A DNA stretch of 35,625 nt from an uncultured Erysipelotrichaceae bacterium (GCA_951801995.1 CATOOY010000001.1:1-35625), one strand, 5' to 3'. Numbered from the stretch's first letter, positions 1,214 to 28,811 are shown. Made by a program: numbers and translations. Notes: a model not told the origin generated them from the letters alone.

Positions 1214-2956
<1,743 letters not shown>

Positions 2957-2994
2957 ATATGATAAAATATTCTTAAATATAGGAGGAAAATAAG

Positions 2995-3813
2995 ATGACA
3001 AATTTTGATCGAGTAAGAGAATATTATAATATTTTTAATGAGGATGAAAGACTTATAAATGATAATAGTGGTAGGCTTGAGTTTGAAATGACTATGAAAA
3101 AATTGCAAAAATATTTACCTAACTCTGCTACGATATTAGACTTAGGAGGAGCAACTGGAGTATATACTTTTCCATTAGCAGAAAAAGGATACAAGATGTA
3201 TTTGGCTGATTTGTCCGAAACATTAATTTCACAAGCAAATAATAAACTATCAAAAAATCCTAACGAGAATATAATTTCATGTGATGTTGTAAATGCTGTA
3301 GATTTAAGTATTTATAATGATGAACAATTTGATGTAGTTTTGCTTTTTGGTCCTTTATATCATTTACTAGAAGAACAAGAAAGAAATAAATGCTTAGAAG
3401 AAGTATACAGAGTTCTTAAAAAAGATGGATTAGTTTTTGCTAGTTTTATTCCTTATCTTGCTGGCAGTATAGCAATTATAGATAGGTATTTCAGACATCC
3501 AGAACAAGTAAACAGAGAGAATCTTAAAGAGGTATTCAACTCAGGAAAGTTCAATAATAGTTCAAATAAAGGCTTTCAAGAAGGATACTATCCTACTTCA
3601 AGTGAAATAGAAGAACTATTTAATAAAAATAATTTTAACAAGGTTTCCATTTCATCAATAAGAGGATTTGCTTATGAAAAAGAAGATAATTTATATAGTA
3701 TTCAAGATGAAGAAATGTTTAATGAGATAATTAAACTTGTAGATGATACATCTGAGTCAAAAGAACTAATAGAAACTTGTGGACATGCAATGTATATTGG
3801 TTCTAAAAAATAA
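2995..3813 (+). CDS. class I SAM-dependent methyltransferase (small-molecule type)
   Basis: Motif I ILDLGGATG, followed by DVVLLFGPLYHL and VLKKDGLV. No DPPY/NPPY or PCQ DNA-methyltransferase motifs. RBS AGGAGG. Confidence 0.85.
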   Translation: MTNFDRVREYYNIFNEDERLINDNSGRLEFEMTMKKLQKYLPNSATILDLGGATGVYTFPLAEKGYKMYLADLSETLISQANNKLSKNPNENIISCDVVNAVDLSIYNDEQFDVVLLFGPLYHLLEEQERNKCLEEVYRVLKKDGLVFASFIPYLAGSIAIIDRYFRHPEQVNRENLKEVFNSGKFNNSSNKGFQEGYYPTSSEIEELFNKNNFNKVSISSIRGFAYEKEDNLYSIQDEEMFNEIIKLVDDTSESKELIETCGHAMYIGSKK

Positions 3814-3839
3814 AAAAACAATGTTTTTTAACTATAATT

Positions 3840-3862
3840 GAGCAAGAAATTGCTCTTTTTTT
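3840..3862 (+). terminator. rho-independent terminator
   Basis: Stem gagcaa (3840-3845) / ttgctc (3850-3855), then TTTTTTT. Confidence 0.7.
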
Positions 3863-3877
3863 GTTACTTGAAAGGAG

Positions 3878-4066
3878 GTGAATTTTATCAATTATTTCTT
3901 TGAAATAGTCATACCACAAGTATTAGAATATTTTAAAGAAAACGCAAAAGATATATCAAGTTTTCTTCTATTAGATGTATTATTAAAGAATAAAAATTAT
4001 GAAAAAGATATTCAAAAATTATTTGAAGTGCCAGAAGAAATAAGTAATAAATATATTGAAAAATAA
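3878..4066 (+). CDS. hypothetical small protein (doubtful start)
   Basis: 62-aa ORF. The GTG start overlaps the AGGAGG, so there is no spacer and the real start is unclear. Confidence 0.3.
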   Translation: MNFINYFFEIVIPQVLEYFKENAKDISSFLLLDVLLKNKNYEKDIQKLFEVPEEISNKYIEK

Positions 4067-4240
4067 TTAATGATATTCATCAATTTTATGAAAAAAAATT
4101 GATCCGTCGGAGACCAATTTTAAAGGGTCTTAGGGGTGTCCCCTAACAAGAAAATGGGTGTGTAGACACCATGCTTGATAGTTTATTTTTATATATTAAG
4201 TAACCTCAAAGTATTAAAGTCAAAAGAAAGGAGAAAATAA

Positions 4241-4813
4241 ATGGAATTTAAATGGCAAGATAATTACTATACACTTAAAAAATATAACTTAACTTATGAT
4301 GATTTAAAGAAAATAATTAAGAGGATTTATAAACGACATCCACTTGAAGATTGGACTTATCTAAGACATCCTCTAAACGATCAAGTTTGTCTTTACTTAA
4401 ATCTTGAATTTGTGGAATATTTAGAGGAAGTTTATTTCAATAAGAACGGTTATTATTTAGATTTAGAAATAGCATTCTTTGAAAAACAAATATTAAGACT
4501 TGAACAAGAATTTAAATTAGATCATAGTGAAATACATTATGAAGATATTTCACTATATGATTTAAGAGAATACTTTGGAAAAAGTAAAAACTCTATTGGA
4601 GTAGCAACTTATCGAATGCAACAACATTTTTCTTATCCTCTAAAATACACTAAGAATGGAAAAGTTTATGTAAAAGCTGAAGGTGTTAAATGGCTTAATG
4701 AAAAATATTTTAGAAAGTCTTATTTACAAGAACTAGAAAAATATAAGTTAGCACTTCAAAAAGCAAAATATATTAAACATAATAAAAAAGGAGGACCATA
4801 TATTATAATATAG
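4241..4813 (+). CDS. hypothetical protein
   Basis: 190-aa ORF with RBS AAAGGAGA 8 nt upstream. Basic C-terminus. No confident family. Confidence 0.6.
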   Translation: MEFKWQDNYYTLKKYNLTYDDLKKIIKRIYKRHPLEDWTYLRHPLNDQVCLYLNLEFVEYLEEVYFNKNGYYLDLEIAFFEKQILRLEQEFKLDHSEIHYEDISLYDLREYFGKSKNSIGVATYRMQQHFSYPLKYTKNGKVYVKAEGVKWLNEKYFRKSYLQELEKYKLALQKAKYIKHNKKGGPYIII

Positions 4814-4827
4814 GTCCACTACATATA

Positions 4828-6126
4828 TTATTTTTTTCCTATTAATGTTAATAATATTTTTTCCATATCTGATGAAGAATTATCGCCTTTTATCAATCCA
4901 GTATCTGGACTTGAAAACAACAATGCAAGTATTTTATTATTTACTTCTTCATCAGTTAAATTACCATTATTAATTAAAGAAAGATAAAAATAAGTTAATG
5001 CATATTTTTGTTTATACTCTGTTTCTAAATGTTTTGAGGAAATTAACAATTTTACAAAAATTCGTAAAAAATATAATGTCAATGTTATAATTGAAATTAT
5101 TATTAAACTAGTATAAATAGGAATATTATTATCAAATATAGTAATTTCTAACAATGTTTTATTGCCAAATTCAATTTTAGGAGTAATTATAAAATATAAT
5201 AAAAGAATAATAATTGCGACTATAAATCCAACAATAATACTATATTTTTTCACTTCCTTTTTGTATTTATTTGCTTCATTTTGCATATGTTCAGCTGGCT
5301 TTTCTACTTTCAATTTTTCAGCATAAGTTTTTTCAAGTGTTTCTAATCTATCATTTGCTTCATTAATAAAATCATCAACTTGTCTTTTTGAACTATCACT
5401 AAAATCATTATAATCTTCTTGTACAGTTTTAAACCAATTTGATTCTTGTTCTTTCATTTCTGATAGATATGAGACATATTCTTGCTTTTCCTGATTTATA
5501 GTATTAATTGATTGAGAATATACACTTAATAAGTTTTCAATTTCCTTCTTTGAAAAAGAGCGTTTTGTTAAATTCTTATAATCTATTTGTCCTATTTTAA
5601 GTCCTAAATAAATAAAAGCCACTTCTCGTTCTATTTCATCACTATTATTTATACTTGAAGTTAGTGTATTTTCGCGAGTTAACAATCTTATGTAACAATC
5701 TAAACCTTTTTGTTCATACTTATCATATATAAATGTCAATGTACTGATGGAATAGTTGGGCAAATTATTATTTAAATAATCAGTGAAAATTATTGGTATA
5801 TCTTTTCGACGATTATAATCTAGATGTAACTTACTCCTTATATCGCTTTCAATATTATTTTTTACTCTATCTTCACTCTCATAATTAATTACAGTAGTAA
5901 TTAAAGATTCTAATCTTTCAATTTCTTCATTTAGTCTACTGGCATAAATTTCAATTTTTCCCACATAAGTCTTTAAATTGCTATTTAAGAATAGTTGATA
6001 ATCAGTTAGATTTTTAAATTGTTTAGAATTCCTTAATTTATCTGTTAAAGTAATTGGATTTTCTTCCATGCATTCACTAATATATTTTTCCGCATCTAAT
6101 TTTTTTATAACCAAAACCTCCCGCAA
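4828..6126 (-). CDS. coiled-coil protein with two C-terminal TM helices and a conserved-looking tail (putative membrane effector)
   Basis: 432-aa ORF. The N-terminal ~290 aa are soluble and coiled-coil-like. TM segments are YSIIVGFIVAIIILLLYFII and IYTSLIIISIITLTLYFLRIFVKLLI (about nt 5040-5241). Tail is YALTYFYLSLINNGNLTDEE...LFSSPDTGLIKGD. The annotated start is TTG with no SD; the alternative is ATG at 6069. Confidence 0.7.
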   Translation of the reverse strand: MREVLVIKKLDAEKYISECMEENPITLTDKLRNSKQFKNLTDYQLFLNSNLKTYVGKIEIYASRLNEEIERLESLITTVINYESEDRVKNNIESDIRSKLHLDYNRRKDIPIIFTDYLNNNLPNYSISTLTFIYDKYEQKGLDCYIRLLTRENTLTSSINNSDEIEREVAFIYLGLKIGQIDYKNLTKRSFSKKEIENLLSVYSQSINTINQEKQEYVSYLSEMKEQESNWFKTVQEDYNDFSDSSKRQVDDFINEANDRLETLEKTYAEKLKVEKPAEHMQNEANKYKKEVKKYSIIVGFIVAIIILLLYFIITPKIEFGNKTLLEITIFDNNIPIYTSLIIISIITLTLYFLRIFVKLLISSKHLETEYKQKYALTYFYLSLINNGNLTDEEVNNKILALLFSSPDTGLIKGDNSSSDMEKILLTLIGKK

Positions 6127-6128
6127 TT

Positions 6129-6800
6129 TTATTTTAAATATTCATCCAAATATTTTGTCCATTCAGGCACATTTTCTTCTTCAAACAAATGATGTAAAAA
6201 ATCTACAATAATTTGATGTCTAGATTGGGCTTCTGCTTTTCCAGAATCAGTCAACATTAAATCTTTAAGTTTTAATATCTTTTCAAAAATATGACAGACA
6301 CTACTATCAGCACATTTTCTTGTATATTTTTCAGCATCTATATTTTCAATTGGAAATATATTCTTATCAAAGAATGGCTTTCCATTTTTCATACTATATG
6401 TATAAACTCTTAAAATGCCATTTGCACCCAAAGCATCGCACATATCAGCATCAGAAACAATTTTACCTTCAATAGTTTTTGGCCTAAATCCTTTTAATAA
6501 TTTACTATATCCGATACATTTAATCTCAGATAAAACTTGCTTTTGAATTTCTTCATCTACTTTAGCTTTATTCATAAAACTCTTAGCATTAGTTAAATTT
6601 TCAGCATTATCCATACCAAATAATTTATAATCATCAACATCATGTAGTAAAGCTATCAAAGATACTACTGTAATATTAGCTTTTTCTTTGTCTGCAAAAG
6701 TTAAAGACAATCTTAGAACTCTATCTATATGATCCATTCCATGACCAGAATTATCTTGATTTAATAAATTATATACTTGCTCTTTAATTTCATCTATCAT
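6129..6800 (-). CDS. HD-domain metal-dependent phosphohydrolase
   Basis: GHGMDHIDRV (H..H), LLHDVDD (HD), VSDADMCDALGA (D). RBS AGGAG. The start overlaps the upstream stop (ATGA at 6797-6800). Confidence 0.85.
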   Translation of the reverse strand: MIDEIKEQVYNLLNQDNSGHGMDHIDRVLRLSLTFADKEKANITVVSLIALLHDVDDYKLFGMDNAENLTNAKSFMNKAKVDEEIQKQVLSEIKCIGYSKLLKGFRPKTIEGKIVSDADMCDALGANGILRVYTYSMKNGKPFFDKNIFPIENIDAEKYTRKCADSSVCHIFEKILKLKDLMLTDSGKAEAQSRHQIIVDFLHHLFEEENVPEWTKYLDEYLK

Positions 6801-7543
6801 TTTTTCAACTCCTTAAACCCATTTCTACTCCACAACCATAATGCTGTATGAATATCAATAGGCTTATATTTTGTATCCTTAAATAATTCATTCCATCTAT
6901 CTATTACAATTAATTGAACATTACTCGAATTCAGTTCATCTTCAGTAATTAATCCAAGTCTATAAGTAGATTTACAAACATGAGTATCTGGAGCAACTGT
7001 CAGATTTTCAATGTTTTTATATTTTCTATCAGTATATTGCCAAATAACATATAACCAATAATTACAAATTTTGGTGCCTGACAAATACGGAAATTTAGTT
7101 TTATTGGTCTTTTGAATAAAATCTCTTATTTTATCAACATCATTATCTAATTCATTAAACAAATTCCTAATATCTCCATTAAACATTTCTACAAAGGTAT
7201 TACATAGCTTTATCCATATTTCAGTTTGCTTAATCTTTTGTAAAGCAACTTTATATTTTGTTAAAGCATATTGTACTTCTTCAAACGATCTATTTATAAC
7301 TTCATGTGGATTAAAAACAAATTTTGTTTTTTCATCTTGATATGTTTTGTTTGCACTTTCCCATAAAGTATAAGAATTTCTTTGATAATTAAGTGCCATT
7401 GGCAAAGTAAAATATAAATAATTTTCTAATGAAGATTTATCTAAATGTGGATTTTCATCTTCTGGCATTATTTCTCCGCCAAGACTTCCTTCTTTCCACA
7501 TTGTATATAAAATATCTACTTTTTTAAGTATTTCTTCACGCAT
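6797..7543 (-). CDS. HhH-GPD superfamily DNA-glycosylase-like protein (EndoIII-like fold, no Fe-S cluster)
   Basis: HhH-like LSGTKICNYWL, then about 28 aa later APDTHVCKSTYRLGL. Compare EndoIII LPGVGRKTA ... VDTHIFRVxNRLG. There is no C-terminal Cys cluster. RBS GGTGG. Confidence 0.6.
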   Translation of the reverse strand: MREEILKKVDILYTMWKEGSLGGEIMPEDENPHLDKSSLENYLYFTLPMALNYQRNSYTLWESANKTYQDEKTKFVFNPHEVINRSFEEVQYALTKYKVALQKIKQTEIWIKLCNTFVEMFNGDIRNLFNELDNDVDKIRDFIQKTNKTKFPYLSGTKICNYWLYVIWQYTDRKYKNIENLTVAPDTHVCKSTYRLGLITEDELNSSNVQLIVIDRWNELFKDTKYKPIDIHTALWLWSRNGFKELKK

Positions 7544-7558
7544 ATTACCACCAATAAT

Positions 7559-7567
7559 ATTATACCA
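7559..7567 (-). promoter_or_regulatory. extended -10 (TGgTATAAT) for the 7543-4828 operon
   Basis: Minus-strand tggtataat lies 16 nt upstream of the ATG at 7543. The -35 is weak. Confidence 0.4.
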
Positions 7568-7665: not shown

Positions 7666-7823
7666 TATATTTATCAAGTTATTATGAATTTCGTGTTTGT
7701 AGGTGTTCATAACCTAGCAAACAATCGCTCCAATTGAAAACAACTTACGGACTAATGAAAGTTTGTGAGTTTTTATTTTATATAAAAAACTTTAGTTCTC
7801 TTTCTAGGAAGGAGGACTTTTTG

Positions 7824-8108
7824 ATGTTGGAATTTAAAACTATTGAAACATTAAAACCAAATATTGAAATCTTAGAAGTAATTAAAGGCTATACTTACAA
7901 AGTTAAAAAAGGTGCAATAAAACATATTCTACATACCAATTTACAGGTTATAGAACCTACTGAATACTCAATTACATATCCTACTACTCTTACAATTCTA
8001 GAATATAAAGTTAATGAAATATCTAATAAGCCATTTTATATTAAAGAGCATAATCAAAAATATAATTTGAAAGAAATTACACAAATTTTAAAAAAATTTA
8101 AAGTTTAG
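7824..8108 (+). CDS. hypothetical protein
   Basis: In-frame ATG at 7824 preceded by GGAAGGAGG (7808-7816). The 7734 TTG extension has no RBS. Confidence 0.6.
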   Translation: MLEFKTIETLKPNIEILEVIKGYTYKVKKGAIKHILHTNLQVIEPTEYSITYPTTLTILEYKVNEISNKPFYIKEHNQKYNLKEITQILKKFKV

Positions 8109-8219: not shown

Positions 8220-9983
8220 TTATTTATGAGATGTGCAGTATATGTAAGAGTGTCGTTGTAATACATAGGCAGACACATTATCCTCTTTTTTTTCTAGTTC
8301 TCGTTTAGTTATTGTAAAACCATATTTTCCAAAGTTTGTACCAATATCCAGTTTCCCATTTGGAAGGTTTTCGTTGATTAACTCTCCAGTTTTTAAAATA
8401 AATTTAATCTTGTAAAAATCTTCTTCTCCATTATCTAATTTTTCGCCAATGATAATCTTATCAACTAAACTATTAAACACTTCTTCATTGAATTTGGTAA
8501 GACCTTTATATTGTTTTAAGGTATTAGAAATTTTACCAATTTGTTCTAGTTTTTGTTTTCTAGTAAGTTCTATATTTTCAGTATCTTTTAATTGTTGTTC
8601 ATACTCTTTAATCTTGTTGGAAATTTCAAGATTTTTTTGATTTAATATTTCTTTTGAAATAGATCCCTCAAGTTGTAAGTCAATTAGATTAGATAATTTG
8701 CTTTCCAATTTAGATATTTCATCTTCTATTTTTTTATGATTAAGATTGTCTTGTTTTTCGTTGATAACTTTATTTACTTTTTTCATAAATGAATGGATAT
8801 ATTTATCATTATTTTGAAACAATTTATTATAAGCAATTACAAATATATCTTCTAATTCTTCTTGTTTATAATGAATTAAGTTAGAGCAATCAATTTTATT
8901 TCGATGACTTCTACATATCCAGTAAGCAACTTCTTTACCACTATTTCTGATTTTATAAGAACGCCTAATAAAACGCTCTCCACATATTCCACAAAAGATT
9001 TTACTACTAAATGGATATTTCCTACTAAACTTATCTCTATTGCCATCTGGTTTAATGATTTTGCTTCTGATGGTCAGTATTTCTTGGCATTTATCCCATA
9101 ATTCACGTGAAATAATAGGTTCGTGATGATTAGAAGTAAAGTATTGTTCTTTCTCTCCATAATTCACTTTCTTTTTATGAGTTAATACATTTTCAGTATA
9201 GTATTTACCAGTTTTTAAATCTCCTACATATTTTTCGTTGATGATTATTCTTCTGACTGAAGCATGACACCATTTTAAATTAGATGGACTAGGTATACCT
9301 AGATTATTTAGATTAAGTGCTATTGTTCTAAAACCTACACCTTTTGAATATTCTTCAAAAATATAAGTAACAATATCTTTTTTACTTTCATCTGGATAAA
9401 TCATATCTTTTTCCTTATCGTATAAATATCCAAATGGAGCATACTTACCGACCAATTCGCCACGTTTCATTTTCATACGAACACCAGCTTTTACATTTTC
9501 TGAAATAGATTCACTTTCTGCTTGAGCAAAAGCACTATATAAAGTTAAAAATAATTCATTGGATAAACCTAGAGTATGGATGTTTTCTTTTTCAAAATAA
9601 ACATCTACATTATGTTCACGAAGCAGTCTTACACAATTTAAAGTATCAACTGTATTACGAGCAAATCTTGATATAGACTTAGCTAATATTAAATCAATCT
9701 TACCATTTAAAGCATCATTCATCATTTGATTAAATTGTTCTCTTTTCTTTGTTTGAGTGCCAGTTATACCCTCATCAGCATATATTCCTACAAATTCCCA
9801 ATCAGGATTTTCTTCTATCATATTTTTATAGTGGATTCGTTGTGAGTCATAACTTGTTTTCTGATCTTCATTGTCTGTACTAACACGACAATAAGCACAA
9901 GTACGAATTAGTTTATATTTTACATTTCCTTTTAAGCATATTGTTTTAGAAGTTGGTGCTATTACTTCAACATTATTATTCAT
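8220..9983 (-). CDS. large serine recombinase
   Basis: AYCRVSTDNEDQ, SISRFARNT, zinc ribbon CGICG...WICRSHRNKIDC, coiled-coil C-terminus. The last 7 codons and the stop lie outside the junction repeat. Confidence 0.93.
   Translation of the reverse strand: MNNNVEVIAPTSKTICLKGNVKYKLIRTCAYCRVSTDNEDQKTSYDSQRIHYKNMIEENPDWEFVGIYADEGITGTQTKKREQFNQMMNDALNGKIDLILAKSISRFARNTVDTLNCVRLLREHNVDVYFEKENIHTLGLSNELFLTLYSAFAQAESESISENVKAGVRMKMKRGELVGKYAPFGYLYDKEKDMIYPDESKKDIVTYIFEEYSKGVGFRTIALNLNNLGIPSPSNLKWCHASVRRIIINEKYVGDLKTGKYYTENVLTHKKKVNYGEKEQYFTSNHHEPIISRELWDKCQEILTIRSKIIKPDGNRDKFSRKYPFSSKIFCGICGERFIRRSYKIRNSGKEVAYWICRSHRNKIDCSNLIHYKQEELEDIFVIAYNKLFQNNDKYIHSFMKKVNKVINEKQDNLNHKKIEDEISKLESKLSNLIDLQLEGSISKEILNQKNLEISNKIKEYEQQLKDTENIELTRKQKLEQIGKISNTLKQYKGLTKFNEEVFNSLVDKIIIGEKLDNGEEDFYKIKFILKTGELINENLPNGKLDIGTNFGKYGFTITKRELEKKEDNVSAYVLQRHSYIYCTSHK
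8226..8251 (+). pseudogene. 5' fragment of a split serine recombinase gene (MRCAVYVRV...)
   Basis: GAGGAG RBS, then atg aga tgt gca gta tat gta aga gt. The reading frame then runs into a stop (MRCAVYVRVSL*). It joins in phase with 11970-12890. Confidence 0.7.
8244..8251. repeat. left copy of the 8-bp junction repeat GTAAGAGT
   Basis: Identical octamer in identical codon phase at 11970-11977. Confidence 0.7.
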
Positions 9984-10032
9984 TTATTCCTTTCCTAATT
10001 GTTGAATAATAGCATATTTCAAATATTTTTTA

Positions 10033-10218
10033 TCACGCAAAACTATATTCTGAATTGTTTAGTTTGTTATATTTTGCATATTCATTTTCAATTTTATTTT
10101 TGATTTTTTTATATTGTTTAACATCAATTAAATTATTATCTTTGATAAATTCTAGCATAGCAATTTCTGCCACATAAGCTTTTAAATATTTTAATTTTTT
10201 ATCACTTCTTTCTTGCAT
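10033..10218 (-). CDS. small hypothetical protein upstream of the recombinase
   Basis: 61-aa ORF with RBS AAAGGGGG 8-9 nt upstream. It ends 49 nt before the recombinase start. Confidence 0.55.
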   Translation of the reverse strand: MQERSDKKLKYLKAYVAEIAMLEFIKDNNLIDVKQYKKIKNKIENEYAKYNKLNNSEYSFA

Positions 10219-10483
10219 AAATTATTACCCCCTTTAAATTCTTAAACAATTCATGTCATAGTTACGCACCAACTTTCTTTAAAATATCTTAAAAAAATTA
10301 TAACGCACTTAGTTATTTTATACAGCCCTACAAACAAAAAAAGATAACTAAATCATAGCTATCAAAATCGTAAAAATATGAAAAATAATAGTCATACTTA
10401 TGACCGAAGTTATGGCCATTAAAAACTCATTTTTTCCAAAATAATCACAACAAAAGAAAAGCAGGATAAACTTGTTTACAAAC

Positions 10484-10502
10484 AACTAGCCAGTGGCTAG
10501 TT
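10484..10502. repeat. perfect 19-bp palindrome AACTAGCCA-G-TGGCTAGTT
   Basis: Read directly from the sequence. It is followed by a second hairpin, ccttat-ttc-ataagg, at 10505-10519. Confidence 0.7.
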
Positions 10503-11025
10503 TTCCCTTATTTCATAAGGAGTTAGAGAAAACACAAGTGTTTACATTTTTAATATTTGTTATACAATCGTTAACTTTGGCTTTTTTAGAAACCCTTATA
10601 AATAAAGGCTTTCCAAAATGTGTTTAACAATCGTACACACTTTTTCAATGTGAATTTTCTAAAATTTCGGCTATATTTTTTAGAAAATTTAAAGATTTTA
10701 TGGCCGTAAGTATGGCCATACTTTTGAAGAAAATTACTGATAAATATGTAGAAGTTTGAATATGAAAAAAGCACTACTTACAGTAAAAATAGCACTATTA
10801 GATACAATTTTTTCATATTCTACTATATTGTATCACTCAGATTTCTATAGTCAATAAGGATAAAATGTCTGATATTTTTCGGTAAAAAAGTTGCTCTAAA
10901 ACTTATTTGCTACTTGTTTATAATATATTTATTAAACTAGGTACTAGTCTAGATTATTGATAACCAAATAATATAAATAATTTTTTGAGTCATTATAATA
11001 TATATAAAAAATACATATTTTGTGG

Positions 11026-11031
11026 TATAAT
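11026..11031 (+). promoter_or_regulatory. extended -10 (TGgTATAAT) upstream of the 11057 CDS
   Basis: tggtataat ends at 11031. RBS AAGGGAGG is at 11041-11048. Confidence 0.4.
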
Positions 11032-11056
11032 ACTTAATACAAGGGAGGTTTTTGAA

Positions 11057-11749
11057 ATGGCTGAAATATATTCGAATGCTGATGATTGTCTTGAACTAGC
11101 AAGATATTTAAAGAACAAAATGGGGAGTAAAATTGATTTTTACGGAAGCATACAGCAAGAGGTAATTAGTGGATCGTATTTTTCTGACTTTGAGAGTAAA
11201 CATTATCATCCATATGGAGATGGACTATCATTTTATTATAAATTTTGTAAAGAAGGATTTTTAAGAATTGGAATTGGTTCATTTTGCTCACGTAATAATT
11301 CGGTAGGTGAAAAATTGGCAGCTTTAAGTAATTTTTATGAAGTGTTAAGTGAACAATATGGTGAACCAACTGTGTTTTACACAACAAAAGATGATGATGA
11401 AAGAACTTTATCATTACAATGGTCTTTTGTTAATAAAGAGGAAGACATACAAAACTTTATGAATGGAAGTTATTTTGATGATGCCGAAATAGATGAACTA
11501 ATTGTATTTGGTAAGCCAAGAACACAAATGAATGGTTACCAATTAAGTGATACTACAAGAAAATTGATAGCAAAACAAATTGGTGTTCCCTTTGAATTGA
11601 TTGGTTTAGTTGATGAAAATATAGAAGATTTTGTCAAATATAAAACTGGAAAAGAAATTGGTATTCCAGAGGGAGCAAAAATTGATGGTGTTCCAGTAAG
11701 ATCATATCAAAAGAAAATATCTTCAAGAACAATGTTTGAAAAAAAATAA
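11057..11749 (+). CDS. hypothetical protein (only non-recombination cargo of the inserted element)
   Basis: ATG at 11057 with a strong RBS. The 10985 TTG extension lacks an RBS. No recognisable motifs. Confidence 0.65.
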   Translation: MAEIYSNADDCLELARYLKNKMGSKIDFYGSIQQEVISGSYFSDFESKHYHPYGDGLSFYYKFCKEGFLRIGIGSFCSRNNSVGEKLAALSNFYEVLSEQYGEPTVFYTTKDDDERTLSLQWSFVNKEEDIQNFMNGSYFDDAEIDELIVFGKPRTQMNGYQLSDTTRKLIAKQIGVPFELIGLVDENIEDFVKYKTGKEIGIPEGAKIDGVPVRSYQKKISSRTMFEKK

Positions 11750-11783
11750 AGAAATTAGTTAATTAAATTCTAATTTCTTTTTC
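11748..11783. terminator. bidirectional rho-independent terminator
   Basis: Perfect 11-bp stem aaagaaattag (11748-11758) / ctaatttcttt (11770-11780), with an A-run upstream and T-rich sequence downstream. Confidence 0.7.
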
Positions 11784-11969
11784 TATTCAACAATTATTTA
11801 TTTTAATTTGAACTATGCTATTTTAAAGCCCTAATGATAAAGTTATATCTAATTTATCAATATGGACTTTTTCTTGTTCTGCTTGAGTACCAATAGTGAT
11901 ATTGGTATTTATTTTGTAATCAAAATTGATGATATCCAGAGTTTTAAAATAATACGGTATATGTGTTCC

Positions 11970-11977
11970 GTAAGAGT
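11970..11977. repeat. right copy of the 8-bp junction repeat GTAAGAGT
   Basis: See 8244-8251. Confidence 0.7.
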
Positions 11978-12890
11978 TAGTACAGACGATCAAAGAGATA
12001 ATGGTTATTCTATTGATTCACAACTTCGTATGATTAAAGAATATTGTGAGAAAAACGATTATAGTATTGTAGATGTTTATAATGACGCAGGACATTCTGG
12101 AAAAGATTTAATGCGACCAGAAATGCAGAGACTACTTGCAGATATTAAGTCTAAAAAGATTGATAAGTTAATTGCTATTAAAGTAGATAGACTTACGAGA
12201 AACAACTATGATGGCTTTTGGCTTTTAAATTATTGTGAAGAACACGATGTTAAAATAGAGTTAATACTCGAGCCTTATGATGTATCTACTGCTAATGGTG
12301 AAATGATATTCGGTATGAATTTAGTATTTGGACAAAGAGAAAGAAAAGAAATTGGTGCGAGAACTAAAAGAGCAATGGAAGAAATGGCTTTAGAAAAAAT
12401 CCACCCTAGTAAAGCACCTTATGGCTATACTAGAAACAAAGATACAGGGCATTTAGAAATAGAGCCTATTGAAGCCCAAGTTGTAAAGGAAATATTTAAA
12501 CTATGCCAAGAGGGAAACTCTACTAGAGGTATTGCTACAATTATGGAAGATAATAATGCCTATTTAAAGACTGGTAAATGGCGAAGCGATAGAGTTTATA
12601 AAATTCTAACAAATTCTATTTATATTGGTGTATTTGAATACGGAAAATATAAAAGAAAAACACAAGATATTTTAAGAGTAAAAGACTATTGTGAACCAAT
12701 TATTGATGAAGTTACTTGGAATGCTACTAGAAATGTCTTAGTTAAAAATAAGCATTCAAACTATGGAGAGTTTATTCATTTATTTTCAGGATTAGTAAAA
12801 TGTCCGATATGTAGCGAGATTATGGCTTCATCAGAATCTTTTAAATTGGATTGTCAACAGTTTATTAAAATCAACTTTAGAACATCTTAA
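11970..12890 (+). pseudogene. body of the split serine recombinase, also 3'-truncated
   Basis: VRVSTDDQ..., KVDRLTRN, recombinase domain. The frame stops just after the first CxxC (CPICSEIMAS) of the zinc ribbon. The second Cys pair and the coiled coil are missing. Confidence 0.8.
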
Positions 12891-13106: not shown

Positions 13107-13817
13107 TTATTGTGCTATACCTTTTTCTTTTTGAATATTTTTCAATCGTTTCCAATTATAACTACCATAAATGTCATTTACCAATAAAAGTATTGGTCCT
13201 GTAAGAACAGATATTAAAGAAGTGTTTCCATTAATTATAGGAATTAACCAAAGGGTTATAATAATTAAATCATTAGCTATATAGCAAAATAGTGATAATT
13301 CACTTCTTCTTGCTTCAAAATAACTAGCTAGTACACTTGTAACTATTGAACAAGAACTTATTACTAATAAATCTGTATTAAATGCTTTTAACAGATAATA
13401 ATACCCCCAGAATAGAACTAATTGAGATGCAAAAACAGTAATAATTTCTTTTTTAGATAAGGAACTAATAATTACAACATCATCTTCCTTATCTTGGTGT
13501 TTTAGCCAACTAATTATTCCAATAACCATTATTGGAAATGTCAAAAAAATTGTAATTAATAACTCGCCATAATAACCTTGATTATAAGAAACTATACCAT
13601 AAAAGAATACACTAAAAAATCCTATAAAATAAGATTCAACCTTACCTTTAGACATTAATATTGCAGTTGTTAAATATGTAATTGTATATAAAGAAACTAT
13701 TGCTGTACCATGAAATATCATTGAAGAAAGAATTCCTAACGATATTCCAATAGATAAATATAATTTTTCAAACAAATTCCAATCCTTAAAATAACTTTTT
13801 AAAAATTTCATTATCAT
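13107..13817 (-). CDS. pnuC: PnuC-like (nicotinamide riboside transporter family) multi-pass membrane protein
   Basis: DWNLFEKLYL N-terminus, LMSKGKVESYFIGFF, YGELLITIFL...IISWLKH, ARRSELSLFCYIANDL, NDIYGSYNWKR. About 7 hydrophobic helices. AGGAGG (13819-13824) favours the ATG at 13811 as the start. Confidence 0.7.
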   Translation of the reverse strand: MIMKFLKSYFKDWNLFEKLYLSIGISLGILSSMIFHGTAIVSLYTITYLTTAILMSKGKVESYFIGFFSVFFYGIVSYNQGYYGELLITIFLTFPIMVIGIISWLKHQDKEDDVVIISSLSKKEIITVFASQLVLFWGYYYLLKAFNTDLLVISSCSIVTSVLASYFEARRSELSLFCYIANDLIIITLWLIPIINGNTSLISVLTGPILLLVNDIYGSYNWKRLKNIQKEKGIAQ

Positions 13818-13829
13818 TCCTCCTCGTAA

Positions 13830-14483
13830 TTATTTTGTTAATGGAGAATTTTCCTGTATAGGAATTAATCTAGTTTTTATAGTATTGATAAATGCACATT
13901 TATGTTCAATTTCAAACTTTTCAGTATCAGTTGATAATTCATATTTTATAAATATATTCGGAATAAACTCATATTTATCACTTTGAAAATTACCATAAGA
14001 AGTATCACTTTCAGTATAACTACCTTTTAACATACAATATAATAAATTCCATCTATCACAAGATCCAACATCTGTTTCAGATTTAGTATTATCAGTATCT
14101 TTGAAAATTGGCTCTTCATTCATATCAATTAATTTTGATTTTATATTGTTTTTATCATAATAATCATTTAAAGTAGAAGCATTAAAGTGTTGAGATAATG
14201 CTACCGTAATACATTTGTCAACATCAGTACTTTTATTCATTACCATGAGTCTTACAGGTATACCTTCATTATAAAAAACTATTGCATTATGTTTATTATT
14301 GATATTAATATCCTGATTATTAACAGTTATTATACAATTACAATTCTTAATTATTTTGTACTCATTAAATGGTATTTTTTTGTTTTCAAATCCATCAACA
14401 AAAGCTCCATTAAAGCATTCATAATGATTATCATGTTGTTCTGTCCATAAATCTATTGTTTTAATAACATCCACAATTATCAT
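13830..14483 (-). CDS. hypothetical soluble protein
   Basis: 217-aa ORF, 10 nt after the upstream stop, with AGGAG immediately upstream. No recognisable motifs. Confidence 0.7.
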   Translation of the reverse strand: MIIVDVIKTIDLWTEQHDNHYECFNGAFVDGFENKKIPFNEYKIIKNCNCIITVNNQDININNKHNAIVFYNEGIPVRLMVMNKSTDVDKCITVALSQHFNASTLNDYYDKNNIKSKLIDMNEEPIFKDTDNTKSETDVGSCDRWNLLYCMLKGSYTESDTSYGNFQSDKYEFIPNIFIKYELSTDTEKFEIEHKCAFINTIKTRLIPIQENSPLTK

Positions 14484-14493
14484 CTCCTAATTT

Positions 14494-15363
14494 TTAATAG
14501 TATATTGCAACAGGATGTATTATTTTTATTTCAGTTTTATTGAAAAATCCTAACAAAAAAGTATTAATCATAGCTGGAAAAGTTCTAAAAATATTGCTAT
14601 TATCTTGAGTTATATCATTATTAACAATGTTAGTTAAATATCCTAGCATAGTCATTTTTCCACCATATTTATATGCAACAACTTTTGTTTTATCTCTAAA
14701 ATATTCATCATCCAAAACAATTAAATAATCTCCCATAATTCCAAACTTATTATAAGGGACAATATTAAAAATAGCATCTATTATCTTCCTAACTCCCTCA
14801 TATTCTAAATCAACTTGTTTTTTGATTTCTCTTTTTAATTTTTCTTTTTCATATTCTGCCTTATTACCATTCCCAGTACTTTCGATATTTTGACTTAATT
14901 CTTTAAATTTTTCTTCCATTTCACTATTTTTTACAAATTCTAGTACTGTATCATTAGAAAAAATATTTTTATAATATTCTAAGTCCACAATAAACATTTC
15001 ATCCTTAATCTGTAAAAAATCTCCAATTATCAATTCATCAGTTTTAATTAATGAACTATCCTTTAAATGTTTTTCTAATTTATTAAATGCTTCATCATAA
15101 ATTTTTTTCTCTATGGAATTGGCTTGTTGATTAGTAGTGGACATTGAAACAACATCTCCAATATCTGCACTTAAGTCCACACCTAATCCTTTTCCTAAAA
15201 GTTTTAAATCAACATCTAATTCTCCATCAATATTAGCCTTTGTTTCTCTTCCATTTTCTTTTAATAAACTATTTGTATTAGTAACTTTTGTAGGTAGTCC
15301 ATCATTTATTTGCGAAATATAAGAATATACTGAATCATTATTCAGATAAAGAAAACGCCTCAT
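14494..15363 (-). CDS. hypothetical protein (N-terminal FLYLNNDSVYSYISQINDG signature)
   Basis: 289-aa ORF with RBS AGAGGTG 7 nt upstream. From memory it may resemble an uncharacterised DUF family (DUF6414-like). This is unverified. Confidence 0.7.
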   Translation of the reverse strand: MRRFLYLNNDSVYSYISQINDGLPTKVTNTNSLLKENGRETKANIDGELDVDLKLLGKGLGVDLSADIGDVVSMSTTNQQANSIEKKIYDEAFNKLEKHLKDSSLIKTDELIIGDFLQIKDEMFIVDLEYYKNIFSNDTVLEFVKNSEMEEKFKELSQNIESTGNGNKAEYEKEKLKREIKKQVDLEYEGVRKIIDAIFNIVPYNKFGIMGDYLIVLDDEYFRDKTKVVAYKYGGKMTMLGYLTNIVNNDITQDNSNIFRTFPAMINTFLLGFFNKTEIKIIHPVAIYY

Positions 15364-24966: not shown

Positions 24967-26340
24967 ATGGTAAATATTACTGCAGATTCAAGAAAAGTAA
25001 AAAAAGGGGATATTTTTGTTGCGATAGGGGGATTTCTTCATGATGGTCATGAATTTATTCCTAAAGCTATAGAAAATGGAGCTTCAAAAATTATTGCTGA
25101 AAAAGGAACTTATTCTATTCCTTATGAAATTGTGGAAAATAGTAGGGAATATTTAGTTAATTATTTGAAAAAAGAATACAATTCCCAATTGGAGGGTATG
25201 AAAATAGTTGGTGTGACGGGTACAAATGGAAAAACAACCACTGCTTTTTTACTTTACGAAGCTCTACGTTCTCTTGGTGAAAAGGTTGCCTATATTGGAA
25301 CCGTTGGTTTTTATTTAGATGAAAAGGTGATGTATTTACCAAATACTTGTCCAGATATATGGGATTTATATGATTTATTTATGCAAGCTAAAGAACATGG
25401 ATGTTCTTATGTTATTCAGGAAGTTAGTAGTCATGCTCTTGCATATCCTAGAATAGAAGGTTATGAATTTGATTATGTACTTTTTACTAATTTGACACAA
25501 GATCATTTAGATTATCATAAAACAATGGAGAATTATGCACTTGCAAAACAAATTTTATTTAAAAAATTAAAAAAAGGTGGAAAAGCATTTGTAAATATAG
25601 ATGATCCATATAAAGATTATTTTTTACTCTCTCAAAACCAAAATATCACTTATGGATTTGAAAAAAGTGATTATCAGATAACTTCGTATCATATGAATCA
25701 TTTAGGCTCTCAATTTTCCTATCAATATAAAGATAATATTTTTAAACTTTGTATGAAGCTTATTGGCAAGTATAATGTTTATAATGTGATGGGGGTAGTT
25801 GCTATTTTAAGAGAAATGGGTATTTCTAATTATGATGTGGAAAGAGTTATACCTAATTTAGTAGCTCCTGTTGGTAGAATGGATATGGTAAAATATAAGA
25901 ATAATAATATTATTATAGATTATGCACATACACCAGATGCTTTTGAAAAAATTATAAATACAGTAAAGGAAGTATTAAAAGGAAATATGTATGTAGTGTT
26001 TGGATGTACTGGTGGAAGAGATAGATCCAAAAGACCTATTATGTTTGATATTGTTACTTCTCATGCTAAAAAAGTAATTCTTACCAATGATGATCCTCAT
26101 GATGAAGATCCTAATCAAATTATAGATGATATTTTAGATGGTGCTAAAGTTAGTAATTATGAGGTTTGTTTGGATAGAAAAAATGCAATCCAAAGGGGAA
26201 TTTCTTTCCTTCAAGAAAATGATGTTTTACTGATTCTTGGAAAAGGGCATGAGGAATTTATGTTAATAGGAAATGATAGAATTCCTTTTAATGATAAACA
26301 GGTAGTTTTAGATTATTTAAATACTATTTTATCAAGATAA
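24967..26340 (+). CDS. murE: MurE-family UDP-MurNAc-L-Ala-D-Glu:amino-acid ligase, paralogue 1 (DDPH variant)
   Basis: DSRKVKKGDIFVA, P-loop GVTGTNGKTTT, TNLTQDHLDYH. The specificity motif reads NDDPHDEDP (26089-26100). Confidence 0.85.
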   Translation: MVNITADSRKVKKGDIFVAIGGFLHDGHEFIPKAIENGASKIIAEKGTYSIPYEIVENSREYLVNYLKKEYNSQLEGMKIVGVTGTNGKTTTAFLLYEALRSLGEKVAYIGTVGFYLDEKVMYLPNTCPDIWDLYDLFMQAKEHGCSYVIQEVSSHALAYPRIEGYEFDYVLFTNLTQDHLDYHKTMENYALAKQILFKKLKKGGKAFVNIDDPYKDYFLLSQNQNITYGFEKSDYQITSYHMNHLGSQFSYQYKDNIFKLCMKLIGKYNVYNVMGVVAILREMGISNYDVERVIPNLVAPVGRMDMVKYKNNNIIIDYAHTPDAFEKIINTVKEVLKGNMYVVFGCTGGRDRSKRPIMFDIVTSHAKKVILTNDDPHDEDPNQIIDDILDGAKVSNYEVCLDRKNAIQRGISFLQENDVLLILGKGHEEFMLIGNDRIPFNDKQVVLDYLNTILSR

Positions 26341-26448
26341 AAATATAGTTAAATATGAATTTGATTTATTTATAGAAATATATAGTGATTTTGCTATATA
26401 TTTTTCTTTTACAAACTTTTTTATATATATCCCATAAACTATAGTGAG

Positions 26449-27807
26449 GTGTTGGAATTGAAAATAAAAACGGATTCTAGAAAGATACAAAAGGGGGATA
26501 TTTTTGTTGCTATTCGTGGTTTTACCTATGATGGGCATGATTTTATAAAAGAAGCGATAGAAAGAGGTGCTTCTAAGATTGTTGCTTCAAAAGGAATGTA
26601 TTCTATTCCTTTTGAAATTGTTTCTGATACAAGAAAATATTTAAAAGAGTATTTGGAAAACAATTATTATTCAGATATAAAAAATATGAAATTTATTGGC
26701 GTGACGGGTACGAATGGAAAAACGACAACTGCTTTTTTACTTTATGAGGCTTTACGTTTGCTTGATAAAAAAGTTGCTTATATTGGAACCATTGGATTTT
26801 ATATAGATGACAAGATAGAAGAATTATCTAATACTACTCCTGATTTATTGGATTTATATGCTTTACTACTTCATTGTAAGGATAAAAAATGTGAATATGT
26901 TATTATGGAAGTAAGTAGTCATGCTCTTTCTTTTGGACGAGTAGATGGACTTTTATTTGATTATGCTATTTATACAAATTTGACGCAGGATCATTTGGAT
27001 TATCATAAAACAATGGAAAATTATGCAGGTGCTAAAGAAAAATTATTTTATAAATTGAAAGAAAATGGGAAAGCTATTATAAACAACGATGATTTTTATA
27101 AAGATAAGTTTTTGAAAAAGCAAAATCAAAATATTACTTATGGATTTCAAAATGGGAGTGATTATCAAATAGAGTTAATAAAAAGTGATGCTTTAGAAAG
27201 TATATTTTCTCTTTCTCATTTTCATGGAAAAAATGTATATAAAACACAGCTGTTAGGAGAATATAATATATATAATCTTGTTTCTGTTCTTAGTGTATTA
27301 ATAGAAGAAAAATTATACTTTACAGCAGAAATTGTCGAAAATTTATCTCCACCTGTTGGAAGAATGGAAAAAATACGTTATAATAATAATGCGATACTCA
27401 TTGATTATGCACATACACCAGATGCTGTAGAGAAAGTACTTAAGTGTTCTTCTTCTCTTACAGATGGAAATATATATACTATTATTGGTTGTGGAGGAGA
27501 TCGTGATAGAACTAAAAGGCCTATTATGGCTTCTATTGCAACTACTTATAGTGATTTTGTTATTTTTACGAGTGATAATCCTCGTAGTGAGGATCCAGAA
27601 TCTATTTTTCAGGATATGAAAGAAGGTTTATGTGCAACAAATTATGAATGGATTGTAGATCGTGAAAAAGCAATTTGTAAGGGCGTAAAGATGCTTACAC
27701 AAAATGATATATTATTAGTACTTGGAAAAGGTCATGAACATTATCAACTTATTCATGGAAAGAAAAAGCATTTTGATGATAAAGAAATTGTAATGAAGTA
27801 TTTATAG
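26449..27807 (+). CDS. murE: UDP-MurNAc-tripeptide synthetase MurE, paralogue 2 (DNPR motif, meso-DAP type)
   Basis: Same motifs as paralogue 1, plus SDNPRSEDP (27574-27585). The probable real start is the TTG at 26458, 8 nt after GAGG. Confidence 0.88.
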   Translation: MLELKIKTDSRKIQKGDIFVAIRGFTYDGHDFIKEAIERGASKIVASKGMYSIPFEIVSDTRKYLKEYLENNYYSDIKNMKFIGVTGTNGKTTTAFLLYEALRLLDKKVAYIGTIGFYIDDKIEELSNTTPDLLDLYALLLHCKDKKCEYVIMEVSSHALSFGRVDGLLFDYAIYTNLTQDHLDYHKTMENYAGAKEKLFYKLKENGKAIINNDDFYKDKFLKKQNQNITYGFQNGSDYQIELIKSDALESIFSLSHFHGKNVYKTQLLGEYNIYNLVSVLSVLIEEKLYFTAEIVENLSPPVGRMEKIRYNNNAILIDYAHTPDAVEKVLKCSSSLTDGNIYTIIGCGGDRDRTKRPIMASIATTYSDFVIFTSDNPRSEDPESIFQDMKEGLCATNYEWIVDREKAICKGVKMLTQNDILLVLGKGHEHYQLIHGKKKHFDDKEIVMKYL

Positions 27808-27818
27808 GAGATGGGAAC

Positions 27819-28811
27819 ATGTTAATTTTGGCAAAAGCAATTTTATCAATGATGATAGGATTTGTTATAGCAGTTATTTTAGGACTTATATTTATACCTT
27901 TGCTAAAAAAAATAAAGGTAAGACAAAAAATAAGTGTATTTTTAGCAAAAAAGCATAAGGCAAAAGACGGAGTGCCTACAATGGGTGGATTGATTTTTAT
28001 TATTCCTACTTTGCTTACTGTTCTTTTTTTGCTTCTTACGAACAAAATTCAATTTACAGATCATTTGTTTATTGTTTTGTTTGTTTTTGTAGCTTATGCA
28101 TTATTGGGATTTGTAGACGATTATTTAATTATTAGAAGACATAATAATGAAGGTTTAAAAGAATGGCAAAAATTATTGGGGCAAATTTTAATAGCTATTG
28201 TATTTTATATTTTATATGTAAAAAGTGGGAATGAACCAAGACTTTATATTTATACACTGAATATAAAGATTCCTATGGGAGTATTTTTCTGTTTATTTAT
28301 TTTATTGGTACTTGTAGCTACTTCTAATGCAGTTAATATCACAGATGGTTTAGACGGGCTTGCTGGTGGTCTTTCTGTTATGGCTTTTGTAGCTTTTGGT
28401 ATGATTGCTTGGGGGACTACTTGGTTAGATGGTCATGAAGATATTGCTATTTTTTGCTTTATACTGGTAGGGTCGTTGCTTGGATTTTTGGTATATAATG
28501 ATTACCCTGCCAAGGTTATTATGGGAGATACTGGTTCTTTATCTTTGGGAGCTACTTTAGCTGCTATTGCCATTTTAACAAGTCATGAGATTACTTTAAT
28601 TGTAGTAGCGGGTGTATTTGTTATTGAAACACTTACCTGTGTGATTCAAATGATAGCGGGTAGATATTTTAATAAAAAAGTATTTTTAATGGCTCCTTTA
28701 CATCACCATATGGAAAAAATGGGATGGCAAGAAAGAGATATAGTAAAATTATTTTGGGTTTTTGGTCTTATTTTAAGTATGGCATCTATTGCTTTTGGTG
28801 TTTGGATTTAA
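27819..28811 (+). CDS. mraY: phospho-N-acetylmuramoyl-pentapeptide transferase
   Basis: PTMGG, NAVNITDGLDGLA, MGDTGSL, APLHHH. About 10 TM helices. Confidence 0.93.
   Translation: MLILAKAILSMMIGFVIAVILGLIFIPLLKKIKVRQKISVFLAKKHKAKDGVPTMGGLIFIIPTLLTVLFLLLTNKIQFTDHLFIVLFVFVAYALLGFVDDYLIIRRHNNEGLKEWQKLLGQILIAIVFYILYVKSGNEPRLYIYTLNIKIPMGVFFCLFILLVLVATSNAVNITDGLDGLAGGLSVMAFVAFGMIAWGTTWLDGHEDIAIFCFILVGSLLGFLVYNDYPAKVIMGDTGSLSLGATLAAIAILTSHEITLIVVAGVFVIETLTCVIQMIAGRYFNKKVFLMAPLHHHMEKMGWQERDIVKLFWVFGLILSMASIAFGVWI

Follow-up and report, generated by a model that had tools for sequence, protein, structure and literature searches.

The question raised by this locus is whether three closely packed genes of an uncultured gut bacterium form a new antiphage defence system or a composite of parts with separate histories. 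The window, i.e. the whole stretch of 35,625 nt that was analyzed, comes from an uncultured Erysipelotrichaceae bacterium (GCA_951801995.1, CATOOY010000001.1:1-35625) and carries on its minus strand, at 4828-7543, the genes for an HhH-GPD glycosylase-like protein (g1), an HD-domain hydrolase (g2) and a membrane protein (g3), which the original prediction, made from the sequence alone, had put forward as a candidate novel three-gene system. Our analysis indicates that the three genes most likely do not make up a new defence system; we favor instead, at a probability of about 0.65, a composite locus in which an older g1-g2 pair acting on bases or nucleotides is followed by AbiZ, a known abortive infection gene, as mobile cargo. 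The three genes and the putative signals around them are the following:

6797-7543, minus strand: g1, a 248-amino-acid (aa) glycosylase-like protein of the HhH-GPD superfamily without an iron-sulfur (Fe-S) cluster (open reading frame (ORF), AlphaFold2 (AF2), Foldseek, profile search, hhalign)
6129-6800, minus strand: g2, a 223-aa YpgQ/YedJ-type HD-domain protein resembling (deoxy)nucleoside triphosphate ((d)NTP) pyrophosphohydrolases, coupled to g1 by ATGA (Pfam, NCBIfam, PDB)
4828-6126, minus strand: g3, an AbiZ-family (DUF6161) protein with an N-terminal globular domain, a long helix, two transmembrane (TM) helices and a conserved tail (PADLOC, Pfam, BLASTP, AF2, hydropathy)
7559-7567, minus strand: candidate g1 promoter, an extended -10-like TGgTATAAT followed by a GGTGG ribosome-binding site (proposed from direct reading)
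4789-4820, minus strand: candidate operon terminator, an imperfect hairpin GGACC...GGTCC with a T-run 3' of the g3 stop (proposed from direct reading)

The tight packing of three minus-strand genes had been described correctly, with g1 running from 7543 to 6797, g2 from 6800 to 6129 and g3 (432 aa, TTG start) from 6126 to 4828, and the motifs that had been pointed out, LSGTKICNYW and PDTHVCKSTYRLGL in g1 and the tail LTYFYLSLINNGNLTDEE...LFSSPDTGLIKGD in g3, are all present. The stop codon of g1 and the start codon of g2 indeed share an ATGA, and an AAGGAG ribosome-binding site is located 8 nt 5' of this overlap. The spacing of 2 nt between g2 and g3 holds with the TTG start at 6126; an alternative TTG at 6114, which is the start used by database gene calls for a 99%-identical copy of g3, gives a protein of 428 aa and a gap of 14 nt to the g2 stop. 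Because of this gene spacing the three genes are probably co-transcribed. A consensus promoter scan requiring a -35 hexamer did not call TGgTATAAT, and the promoter-like matches it gave in the region were not above chance; likewise, a terminator scan did not call the hairpin behind g3, which lies outside its loop and GC limits. This hairpin is common to g3 and to a convergent 190-aa ORF.

Co-occurrence of the three genes in other genomes had been named in the original prediction as a check on it, and failure to co-occur as what would speak against a system. On the g1 side, a single-protein query returned relatives of at least 52% identity in 64 species-level genomes, and AbiZ was sought within 6 kb of them; the g2 side comprised 80 metagenomic g2 loci, and on the AbiZ side 32 relatives of g3 were retrieved. 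The order g1-g2-g3 was seen elsewhere only in locus L015, a contig of 2.8 kb which is 99% identical and is a copy of the window's element. AbiZ was found near g1 in none of the 64 genomes, three of which had a close g2 near g1, and among the g2 loci g1 was upstream in one of 80 and AbiZ was present in none. The three families are thus not found together outside a near-identical copy, and the three-gene system is unsupported as a unit.

The relatives of AbiZ occupy surroundings of very different kinds. The one with 62% identity (P0123) has a peptidase M3 gene on one side and a WYL regulator gene on the other, and the one with 61% identity (P0124, L080) comes after an unrelated gene, with a convergent recombinase opposite it that at its C-terminus shares 48% identity (1e-41) with the recombinase at 1226-2956 of the window; those with 39% (P0131) and 37% identity (P0129) are found inside a conjugative element and in an island with HsdR and HipA, respectively. 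Neither g1 nor g2 was detected beside the AbiZ relatives of these four lineages, all of which have unrelated neighbors, so that by comparative genomics AbiZ appears to need no obligatory partner. Two suspected hidden partners were discarded: a gene of 306 aa with Ham1 behind it, close to the 62% relative (L007) and considered as a hidden g1, gave no tblastn match even at E 10, and the incomplete gene located 5' of AbiZ in L080, considered as an HD gene, was ruled out on checking.

Judged from its sequence, g3 belongs to the known AbiZ family, as a new and distant member. It matched the PADLOC model for AbiZ (PDLC02354) at 1e-36, with residues 34-428 on positions 19-396 of the 398 in the model, and Pfam DUF6161 at 1.2e-38 (133 bits, cutoff 27). 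By BLASTP, its residues 145-432 were 29% identical (2e-28) to a DUF6161 protein of 432 aa encoded by the Lactococcus plasmid pUCCL629C, whose gene adjoins abiA, a pairing known from pTR2030-type plasmids. Hydropathy placed the two strong TM helices noticed originally at 291-322 and 334-364, the corresponding segments of the plasmid protein being 295-323 and 329-362. The tail that had been called distinctive does exist, but it is the conserved DUF6161/AbiZ signature and not a unique one, with Y379, F380, Y381, L382, S383 and L384 followed by D408, T409, G410, L411, I412 and K413 invariant across 26 g3 homologues. A coiled coil of ~290 aa had also been proposed for the cytoplasmic part; the AF2 model (pLDDT 78.7) agrees in showing a long helix of ~120 residues that enters the first TM helix, but the ~170 N-terminal residues are globular, forming a domain at ~9-180 (pLDDT ~90). 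After the first TM helix, the model shows a short hairpin and then a second long helix that holds the second TM helix. In short, g3 had been rightly placed among two-TM proteins of the abortive-infection type, while its membership in a named single-gene system had been missed.

The resemblance to AbiZ of pTR2030 comprises the full-length hidden Markov model match, the two TM helices, the tail YLS(L/M)I...D(T/S)GLIK and the length of 432 aa, equal to that of the Lactococcus plasmid homologue; moreover, relatives of g3 likewise occur on their own, within defence islands and mobile elements. On the other hand, identity to the Lactococcus protein is only ~29% and restricted to residues 145-432, the N-terminal domain being unalignable by BLAST, the gene comes from an uncultured gut bacterium of low GC content, and it is joined to the upstream g1-HD operon without an intergenic region of its own. 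AbiZ of Lactococcus lactis pTR2030 was reportedly described by Durmaz and Klaenhammer in 2007. A 2026 review lists it as a single-gene lactococcal abortive infection protein without recognizable domain, which reportedly makes the membrane more permeable in concert with the phage holin and brings about premature lysis of the infected cell (PMC13064643).

In the case of g1, the assignment as an HhH-GPD enzyme held for the fold, the Asp at the catalytic position and the missing Fe-S cluster, but no threshold of a curated family was reached. No match was found in Pfam (E <= 0.1), NCBIfam, PADLOC or PHROG, nor by sequence among PDB chains; g1 stays below the curated thresholds for HhH-GPD (PF00730) and AGOG (PF09171), of which the latter (cutoff 26.1) is approached by distant fused members of the g1 family at 17-24 bits, so it is a member of the superfamily by fold only. 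The AF2 model (pLDDT 96, pTM 0.91), all-helical with two domains, was compared with solved structures using Foldseek, and all strong PDB matches were HhH-GPD proteins: QNG1/DUF2419, EndoIII, Ogg, MutY, AGOG and MagIII, with QNG1 as the best match (TM-score 0.62-0.67, E 1e-4). A g1-family profile matched AGOG 1xqo at 7e-6 with D186 on the Asp of the AGOG PVD motif, and hhalign of the family against E. coli Nth placed D186 on D138 and the Cys cluster of the family on the Fe-S cysteines of Nth.

Across 30 diverse members of the g1 family D186, H188 and W217 are invariant, and K158, within FPYLSGxK, is kept in at least 90%. The segment around K158 falls outside the profile and hhalign alignments; it would form a hairpin with only one Gly, positioned where the HhH is expected, and we infer that Lys158 may be the catalytic lysine known from bifunctional enzymes. 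The spacing from Lys to Asp is 28 residues in g1, and 18 between K120 and D138 of Nth. The g1 protein stops at residue 248, before the Fe-S cluster and thus without the four-Cys C-terminal loop; distant members of the family have a four-Cys C-terminal extension that aligns with the Nth cluster. Altogether, g1 shares with AGOG (1xqo/1xqp), EndoIII/Nth (1orn, 2abk) and Ogg (3n0u, 3knt) the fold and the aligned Asp of P(V/D)DxH, upstream of which its family has a near-invariant Lys in a putative LSGxK hairpin, but differs from these glycosylases in the absence of the Fe-S cluster and in having nucleotide hydrolases, not repair nucleases, as operon partners. QNG1 (7u5a, 7u91, 7ugk) likewise has an HhH-GPD-like fold with a Lys/Asp pair, its PDB titles naming K199C and D231N; nevertheless, g1 is just 10-12% identical to it, ~70 residues shorter and without a Pfam Q_salvage match, and the two are not orthologues since they are separate proteins or domains where both occur.

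The g1 protein is therefore placed, by its fold, in an uncharacterised clade of the known HhH-GPD superfamily, and this clade is a large family without a Pfam model: 3906 homologues were obtained in a word-indexed search, and an exhaustive search gave 531 clusters at 50% identity. Among viral proteins, the nearest match in fold was BFVD R4T712 of Halogranum tailed virus 1, annotated as endonuclease III (TM-score 0.78-0.80, root-mean-square deviation 2.9 A). In viral contigs and in phage and plasmid records no g1 was found except for one distant haloarchaeal plasmid match, NZ_CP144124.1 181532-182152 (Halalkalicoccus). As both the viral fold match and the plasmid match are haloarchaeal, the family extends to archaea and archaeal viruses.

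The proposal that g2 is an HD-domain hydrolase was borne out by its matches to Pfam HD (2.1e-5, 25.2 bits, cutoff 22) and to a set of structural-genomics HD hydrolases such as PDB entry 3djb (1.7e-35, residues 9-211), to 5dqv, YpgQ (7.4e-21), and to E. coli YedJ, the similarity being full-length. The NCBIfam model PRK10119 was matched at 2e-15 with 56.9 bits, below its equivalog cutoff of 286. The metal ligands H...HD...D of YpgQ and E. coli YedJ are kept (H24, H53-D54, DAD), and DHI, LLHDV and SDADMCDALG are conserved in the alignment with structure homologues. YpgQ of B. subtilis is a Mn-dependent (d)NTP pyrophosphohydrolase acting on dNTPs and NTPs with a preference for dGTP and dATP (PMC8177086). 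The search gave 2900 homologues of g2, and genes of this type, unlike the typical YpgQ/YedJ genes, are often located on or next to serine-recombinase elements. In L126, a g2-type HD seems to have become part of an ORF of 649 aa by fusion, and a Mur ligase is encoded two genes further on.

The 64 species-level carriers of g1 (52-96% identity) are all metagenome-assembled genomes (MAGs) of uncultured gut Bacilli or 'Tenericutes' type, the closest coming from rabbit gut. In 29 of 66 g1 loci one or more genes are chained to g1 downstream, at distances of 40 nt or less, and most of them encode nucleotide or base enzymes: NTPase_I-T, Ham1, YpgQ-type HD, YfbR-like HD_3, Q_salvage, UDG, DHH, Ppx/GppA and a second HhH-like protein with or without GNAT. 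Members of the family are also fused to Ham1, Q_salvage or DUF6884, the last being a YaaA-like domain of which one member binds DNA lesions (PMC11701544). The g1-g2 coupling of the window is one case of this general link of g1 to nucleotide (pyro)phosphatases. The overlapping stop and start codons of g1 and g2 are kept in three diverged lineages (the window, L026 and L085), with g2 67-81% identical; the pair as a whole is 65-81% identical between lineages and still translationally coupled.

Beyond the pair, the context of g1 is mostly unrelated to defence, core genes such as rpsI/rplM or penicillin-binding protein (PBP)/MraY often being its neighbors. DNA similarity to the window ends at the borders of g1, even in relatives that are 90% identical, so there is no conserved synteny, and between the window and L020 g1 is 89% identical while the MraY-like core gene (27819-28811 in the window) is 58% identical. 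Across dozens of species-level MAGs g1 is 75-82% identical without common flanking synteny; its conservation reflects either an unusually strong constraint or frequent horizontal transfer. In L001, a methyltransferase and a serine recombinase are located directly downstream of g1, this methyltransferase being no close homologue of the one in the window.

The second HhH-like protein is very divergent and is encoded at the first or second position after g1 in L023, L034, L043, L044, L046, L050, L052 and L060. It contains GYGQKTG, PIDRHD and a 4-Cys cluster, shows no Pfam match on that part and is sometimes fused to GNAT; these loci thus carry two different glycosylase-like genes in tandem.

Most g2 loci show either a chromosomal ClpC / YfbR-like HD / g2 context or a methyltransferase / radical S-adenosylmethionine (SAM) / HD cassette, and many are directly flanked by serine recombinases. 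The cassette, formed by a methyltransferase, a radical-SAM protein (254 aa) and a YpgQ-type HD, recurs in human-gut metagenomes (L089 3432-6970, L093 and ~24 of L092-L171), often in or beside Tn4451-like units with a serine recombinase, TnpV and a relaxase.

The position behind the pair is what varies. The third gene after g1-g2 differs by lineage, being AbiZ in the window, a tRNA_edit protein, not a defence gene, in L026 and AbiJ in L085. In L085-88 and L092, g1 (79%) and HD (81%) are followed by an overlapping full-length AbiJ (PADLOC 3.4e-80) and then by a MobC/NikA-like gene, with a serine recombinase as well in L092. In L089 and L093 the HD gene, here a member of the methyltransferase/radical-SAM/HD cassette, is followed after 24 nt by the candidate defence pair PDC-M14A/B (4.9e-44, 1.6e-79) and then by a relaxase, TnpV and a serine recombinase. 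In L031-33, g1 and NTPase_I-T are followed after 11 nt by an ATPase of the AriA/PtuA/GajA class (PADLOC 8.5e-33) and then by the same MobC-like gene as in the AbiJ loci and a recombinase 39-41% identical to that of the window. The ATPase in L033 (7292-8692) has 466 aa and is without a recognizable nuclease partner (AriB, PtuB, TOPRIM). The AbiJ and PDC-M14 loci have in common an extended HD C-terminus although both flanks differ. Only 5 of the 83 loci with g2, and 4 of the 66 with g1, have a defence gene in the slot, and each trio is known only as near-identical copies, the g1-g2 pair itself being diverged; the third position is thus young and interchangeable.

Within one human-gut species whose flanks are 99% identical, different elements interrupt the sequence that follows the HD gene, at +175, +183 and +407 nt. 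The break at +407 is due to a tyrosine-integrase element and those at +175 and +183 to serine-recombinase elements, defining a hotspot in the ~400 nt behind HD (L097-L138; L100 5669-6076) whose empty site runs into a flavoprotein gene, in a ClpC / YfbR-like HD / g2-type HD context. An attB at the HD stop codon was considered and is unsupported, given that the comparable alleles, from this one species, break at +175 to +407 nt; the 8-mer TGCGGGAG after the HD stop, common to the window and L100, is too short to interpret.

The surroundings of the operon in the window are rich in mobile DNA, as had been pointed out, with three large serine recombinase genes flanking it. The features concerned are:

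1226-4813, plus strand: putative rest of the AbiZ-carrying element, comprising a serine recombinase, a SAM methyltransferase, a 62-aa ORF and a 190-aa ORF, convergent on g3 (Pfam)
1226-2956, plus strand: large serine recombinase (Pfam Resolvase, Recombinase and Zn_ribbon_recom)
2995-3813, plus strand: SAM methyltransferase (Pfam methyltransferase domains)
7734-8108, plus strand: small ORF (cluster c8/c39), in other loci placed ahead of the recombinase found here at 11862-12890, border of a compact serine-recombinase element abutting the g1 promoter region (comparison of loci)
8220-12890, no single strand: nested mobile DNA upstream of g1, with the second large serine recombinase, small ORFs and a truncated recombinase (Pfam)
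8220-9983, minus strand: second large serine recombinase (Pfam)
11862-12890, plus strand: truncated recombinase of 342 aa, no zinc ribbon, parted from its c8 partner (Pfam)

The window is chromosomal, its portion from 16 to 35 kb carrying Suf, PriA, Fmt, two Mur ligases, MraY, DnaK and PepF; the portion from 1 to 16 kb is a variable region and contains the three recombinase genes. GC content is ~26%. On the far side of the defence cargo, L032, L033, L089 and L102 have recombinases 39-63% identical to that of the window. On the other side of the operon, upstream of g1, the window and L018 share homologous DNA exactly as far as 7734. Copies of the small ORF that begins there (61-80%) adjoin copies of the recombinase at 11862-12890 (87-92%) in L033, L105, L108, L111, L115-117, L127 and L145; in L033 the two are adjacent and the segment from 8.1 to 11.9 kb is absent. 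Eight metagenomic loci carry the intact unit of ~2.6 kb, made of the small ORF (92-133 aa) and the recombinase, immediately 3' of g2-type HD genes (e.g. L117 5845-8424), and that of the window is split by an insertion of 3.7 kb carrying the recombinase at 8220-9983.

How the composite locus would work can be outlined from the known relatives of its parts. By analogy with YpgQ, g2 would hydrolyse (d)NTPs that are non-canonical or in excess, removing pyrophosphate and leaving (d)NMPs, and g1, by means of Asp186 and probably Lys158, would cleave the N-glycosidic bond that holds a damaged or non-canonical purine. It may do so in DNA, as AGOG and EndoIII do, which the associations with DUF6884 and UDG favor, or on a mononucleotide, as QNG1 does, which is favored by the fold ranking and by the associations with Q_salvage and pyrophosphatases. 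Most likely, both proteins together would dispose of non-canonical purine nucleotides or bases, or recycle them. AbiZ would have come as cargo at the edge of a large-serine-recombinase element landing directly behind the g1-g2 operon, for which reason it would be expressed by read-through, probably from the g1 promoter, or else from another promoter; once made, it would enter the membrane and speed holin-dependent lysis upon infection, if the activity carries over from Lactococcus.

Several observations weigh against this composite reading and lend themselves to other explanations. Neither att sites nor an empty-site allele was found for the element of the window, the insertion of which we infer. 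In addition, the HD or NTPase gene is followed very closely by a defence gene in each of four independent arrangements, the gaps being 2-14, -1, 11 and 24 nt; this is tighter than the breakpoints of plain insertion at +175 to +407 nt, and such packing looks like selection for co-expression. One could therefore conceive of a modular defence in which g1 with HD, NTPase_I-T or Ham1 forms a front end that recognizes or destroys modified nucleotides or bases and is wired to swappable effectors, namely AbiZ, AbiJ, the AriA/PtuA-like ATPase and PDC-M14. The four defence-type genes with gaps of -1 to 24 nt, the extended HD C-terminus of AbiJ and PDC-M14 loci with different flanks, the ATPase of L031-33 without a visible nuclease partner and the fact that HhH glycosylases can be antiviral all agree with it. 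Of the original idea of a glycosylase/HD pair coupled to a membrane effector, this much stands, that other defence genes are tightly packed in the same slot, but AbiZ itself was found in it only in the window and in L015. We regard such a modular defence as improbable: the slot holds a defence gene in just 5 of 83 g2 and 4 of 66 g1 loci, AbiZ, AbiJ and PDC-M14 were defined without partners of this kind and AbiZ relatives occur without g1 or g2, Mob or recombinase genes come after every case, a pattern that insertion of mobile cargo fits better, and most partners of g1 are house-cleaning enzymes near ribosomal-protein and cell-wall genes.

Single proteins with a glycosylase fold can indeed be weapons against phages: Brig1, of the UDG fold, excises modified phage bases (PMC11078745), and Dag1 and Dag2, which have the HhH fold, defend against 7-deazaguanine phages (bioRxiv 10.1101/2025.10.29.685425). 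The latter also speak against the composite reading, as do the binding of a 7-deazaguanine nucleoside by QNG1, a queuine enzyme and the best solved match of g1, and the high conservation of g1 without synteny, which could mean that g1 itself is mobile and not a housekeeping gene. Accordingly, one might picture g1 as a Dag-like antiviral glycosylase excising modified phage bases such as 7-deazaguanine, with g2 destroying modified dNTPs and AbiZ as an independent neighbor within a defence island. The HhH-GPD fold with conserved Lys and Asp, the family members adjacent or fused to Q_salvage proteins, the absence of synteny, the place of g1 between mobile elements in the window with recombinases alongside in L001, L032 and L033, and the position of Dag glycosylases near aGOG in fold space (bioRxiv 10.1101/2025.10.29.685425) would be in line with such a role. 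Nonetheless, we find it hardly probable, since Dag families are extremely variable and borne on integrons or islands (bioRxiv 10.1101/2025.10.29.685425), while g1 is 75-93% identical in at least 60 species-level genomes, gives no PADLOC or PHROG match, often neighbors core genes (rpsI/rplM, PBP/MraY) and has classic house-cleaning partners; g1 and the Dag proteins, compared here by description only, share the fold of the HhH superfamily, and g1 differs in being conserved and in its house-cleaning partners. Slightly more plausible than either, but still unlikely, is that the whole g1-g2-g3 block is cargo of one mobile element, a common vehicle for separate functions. This would agree with g1 and g2 both being ~80% identical across hosts in which a core gene is 58% identical, with the block being bracketed by recombinases in the window and in L032/L033, and with L089-91, where a g2-like HD is clearly cargo of Tn4451-like elements (serine recombinase, TnpV, relaxase); yet ~60 of the 66 copies of g1 have no recombinase within 6 kb, g1 is absent from plasmid and phage collections bar the one distant archaeal plasmid match, and the homology to L018 spans the g1 promoter region and ends at the c8 border, as would be expected if g1 were resident and an element had inserted next to it.

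Under the composite reading that we prefer, the value of the locus for defence is small, the effector belonging to the known AbiZ family and g1 and g2 not travelling with it. The operon and fusion links of g1 to non-canonical-NTP pyrophosphatases, Q_salvage and DUF6884 suggest instead that its family is a glycosylase branch for non-canonical purines, in DNA or as nucleotides, in gut bacteria with reduced genomes. The slot behind the YpgQ-type HD, or behind g1-NTPase, is moreover a recognizable place in which new defence cargo of uncultured gut Bacillota can be mined; if the modular explanation were true, there would be a defence architecture in uncultured gut Bacilli that catalogues now split into single-gene systems.

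Some minor observations were made on the rest of the window. To the left of the recombinase at 1226-2956, a DUF5661 gene is located at 53-346. The methyltransferase at 2995-3813 matches PADLOC 'mad2' (9.8e-16) over the generic methyltransferase core only. At 13830-15363, on the minus strand and in the variable part, a gene for a DUF6414 protein (289 aa, 6.9e-23; PHROG 16607) is followed by an unannotated gene of 217 aa, and this pair adjoins a nicotinamide mononucleotide transporter of the PnuC type (13107-13817). Finally, two adjacent Mur-ligase paralogues of 457 and 452 aa are encoded at 24967-27807, upstream of the MraY-like gene.

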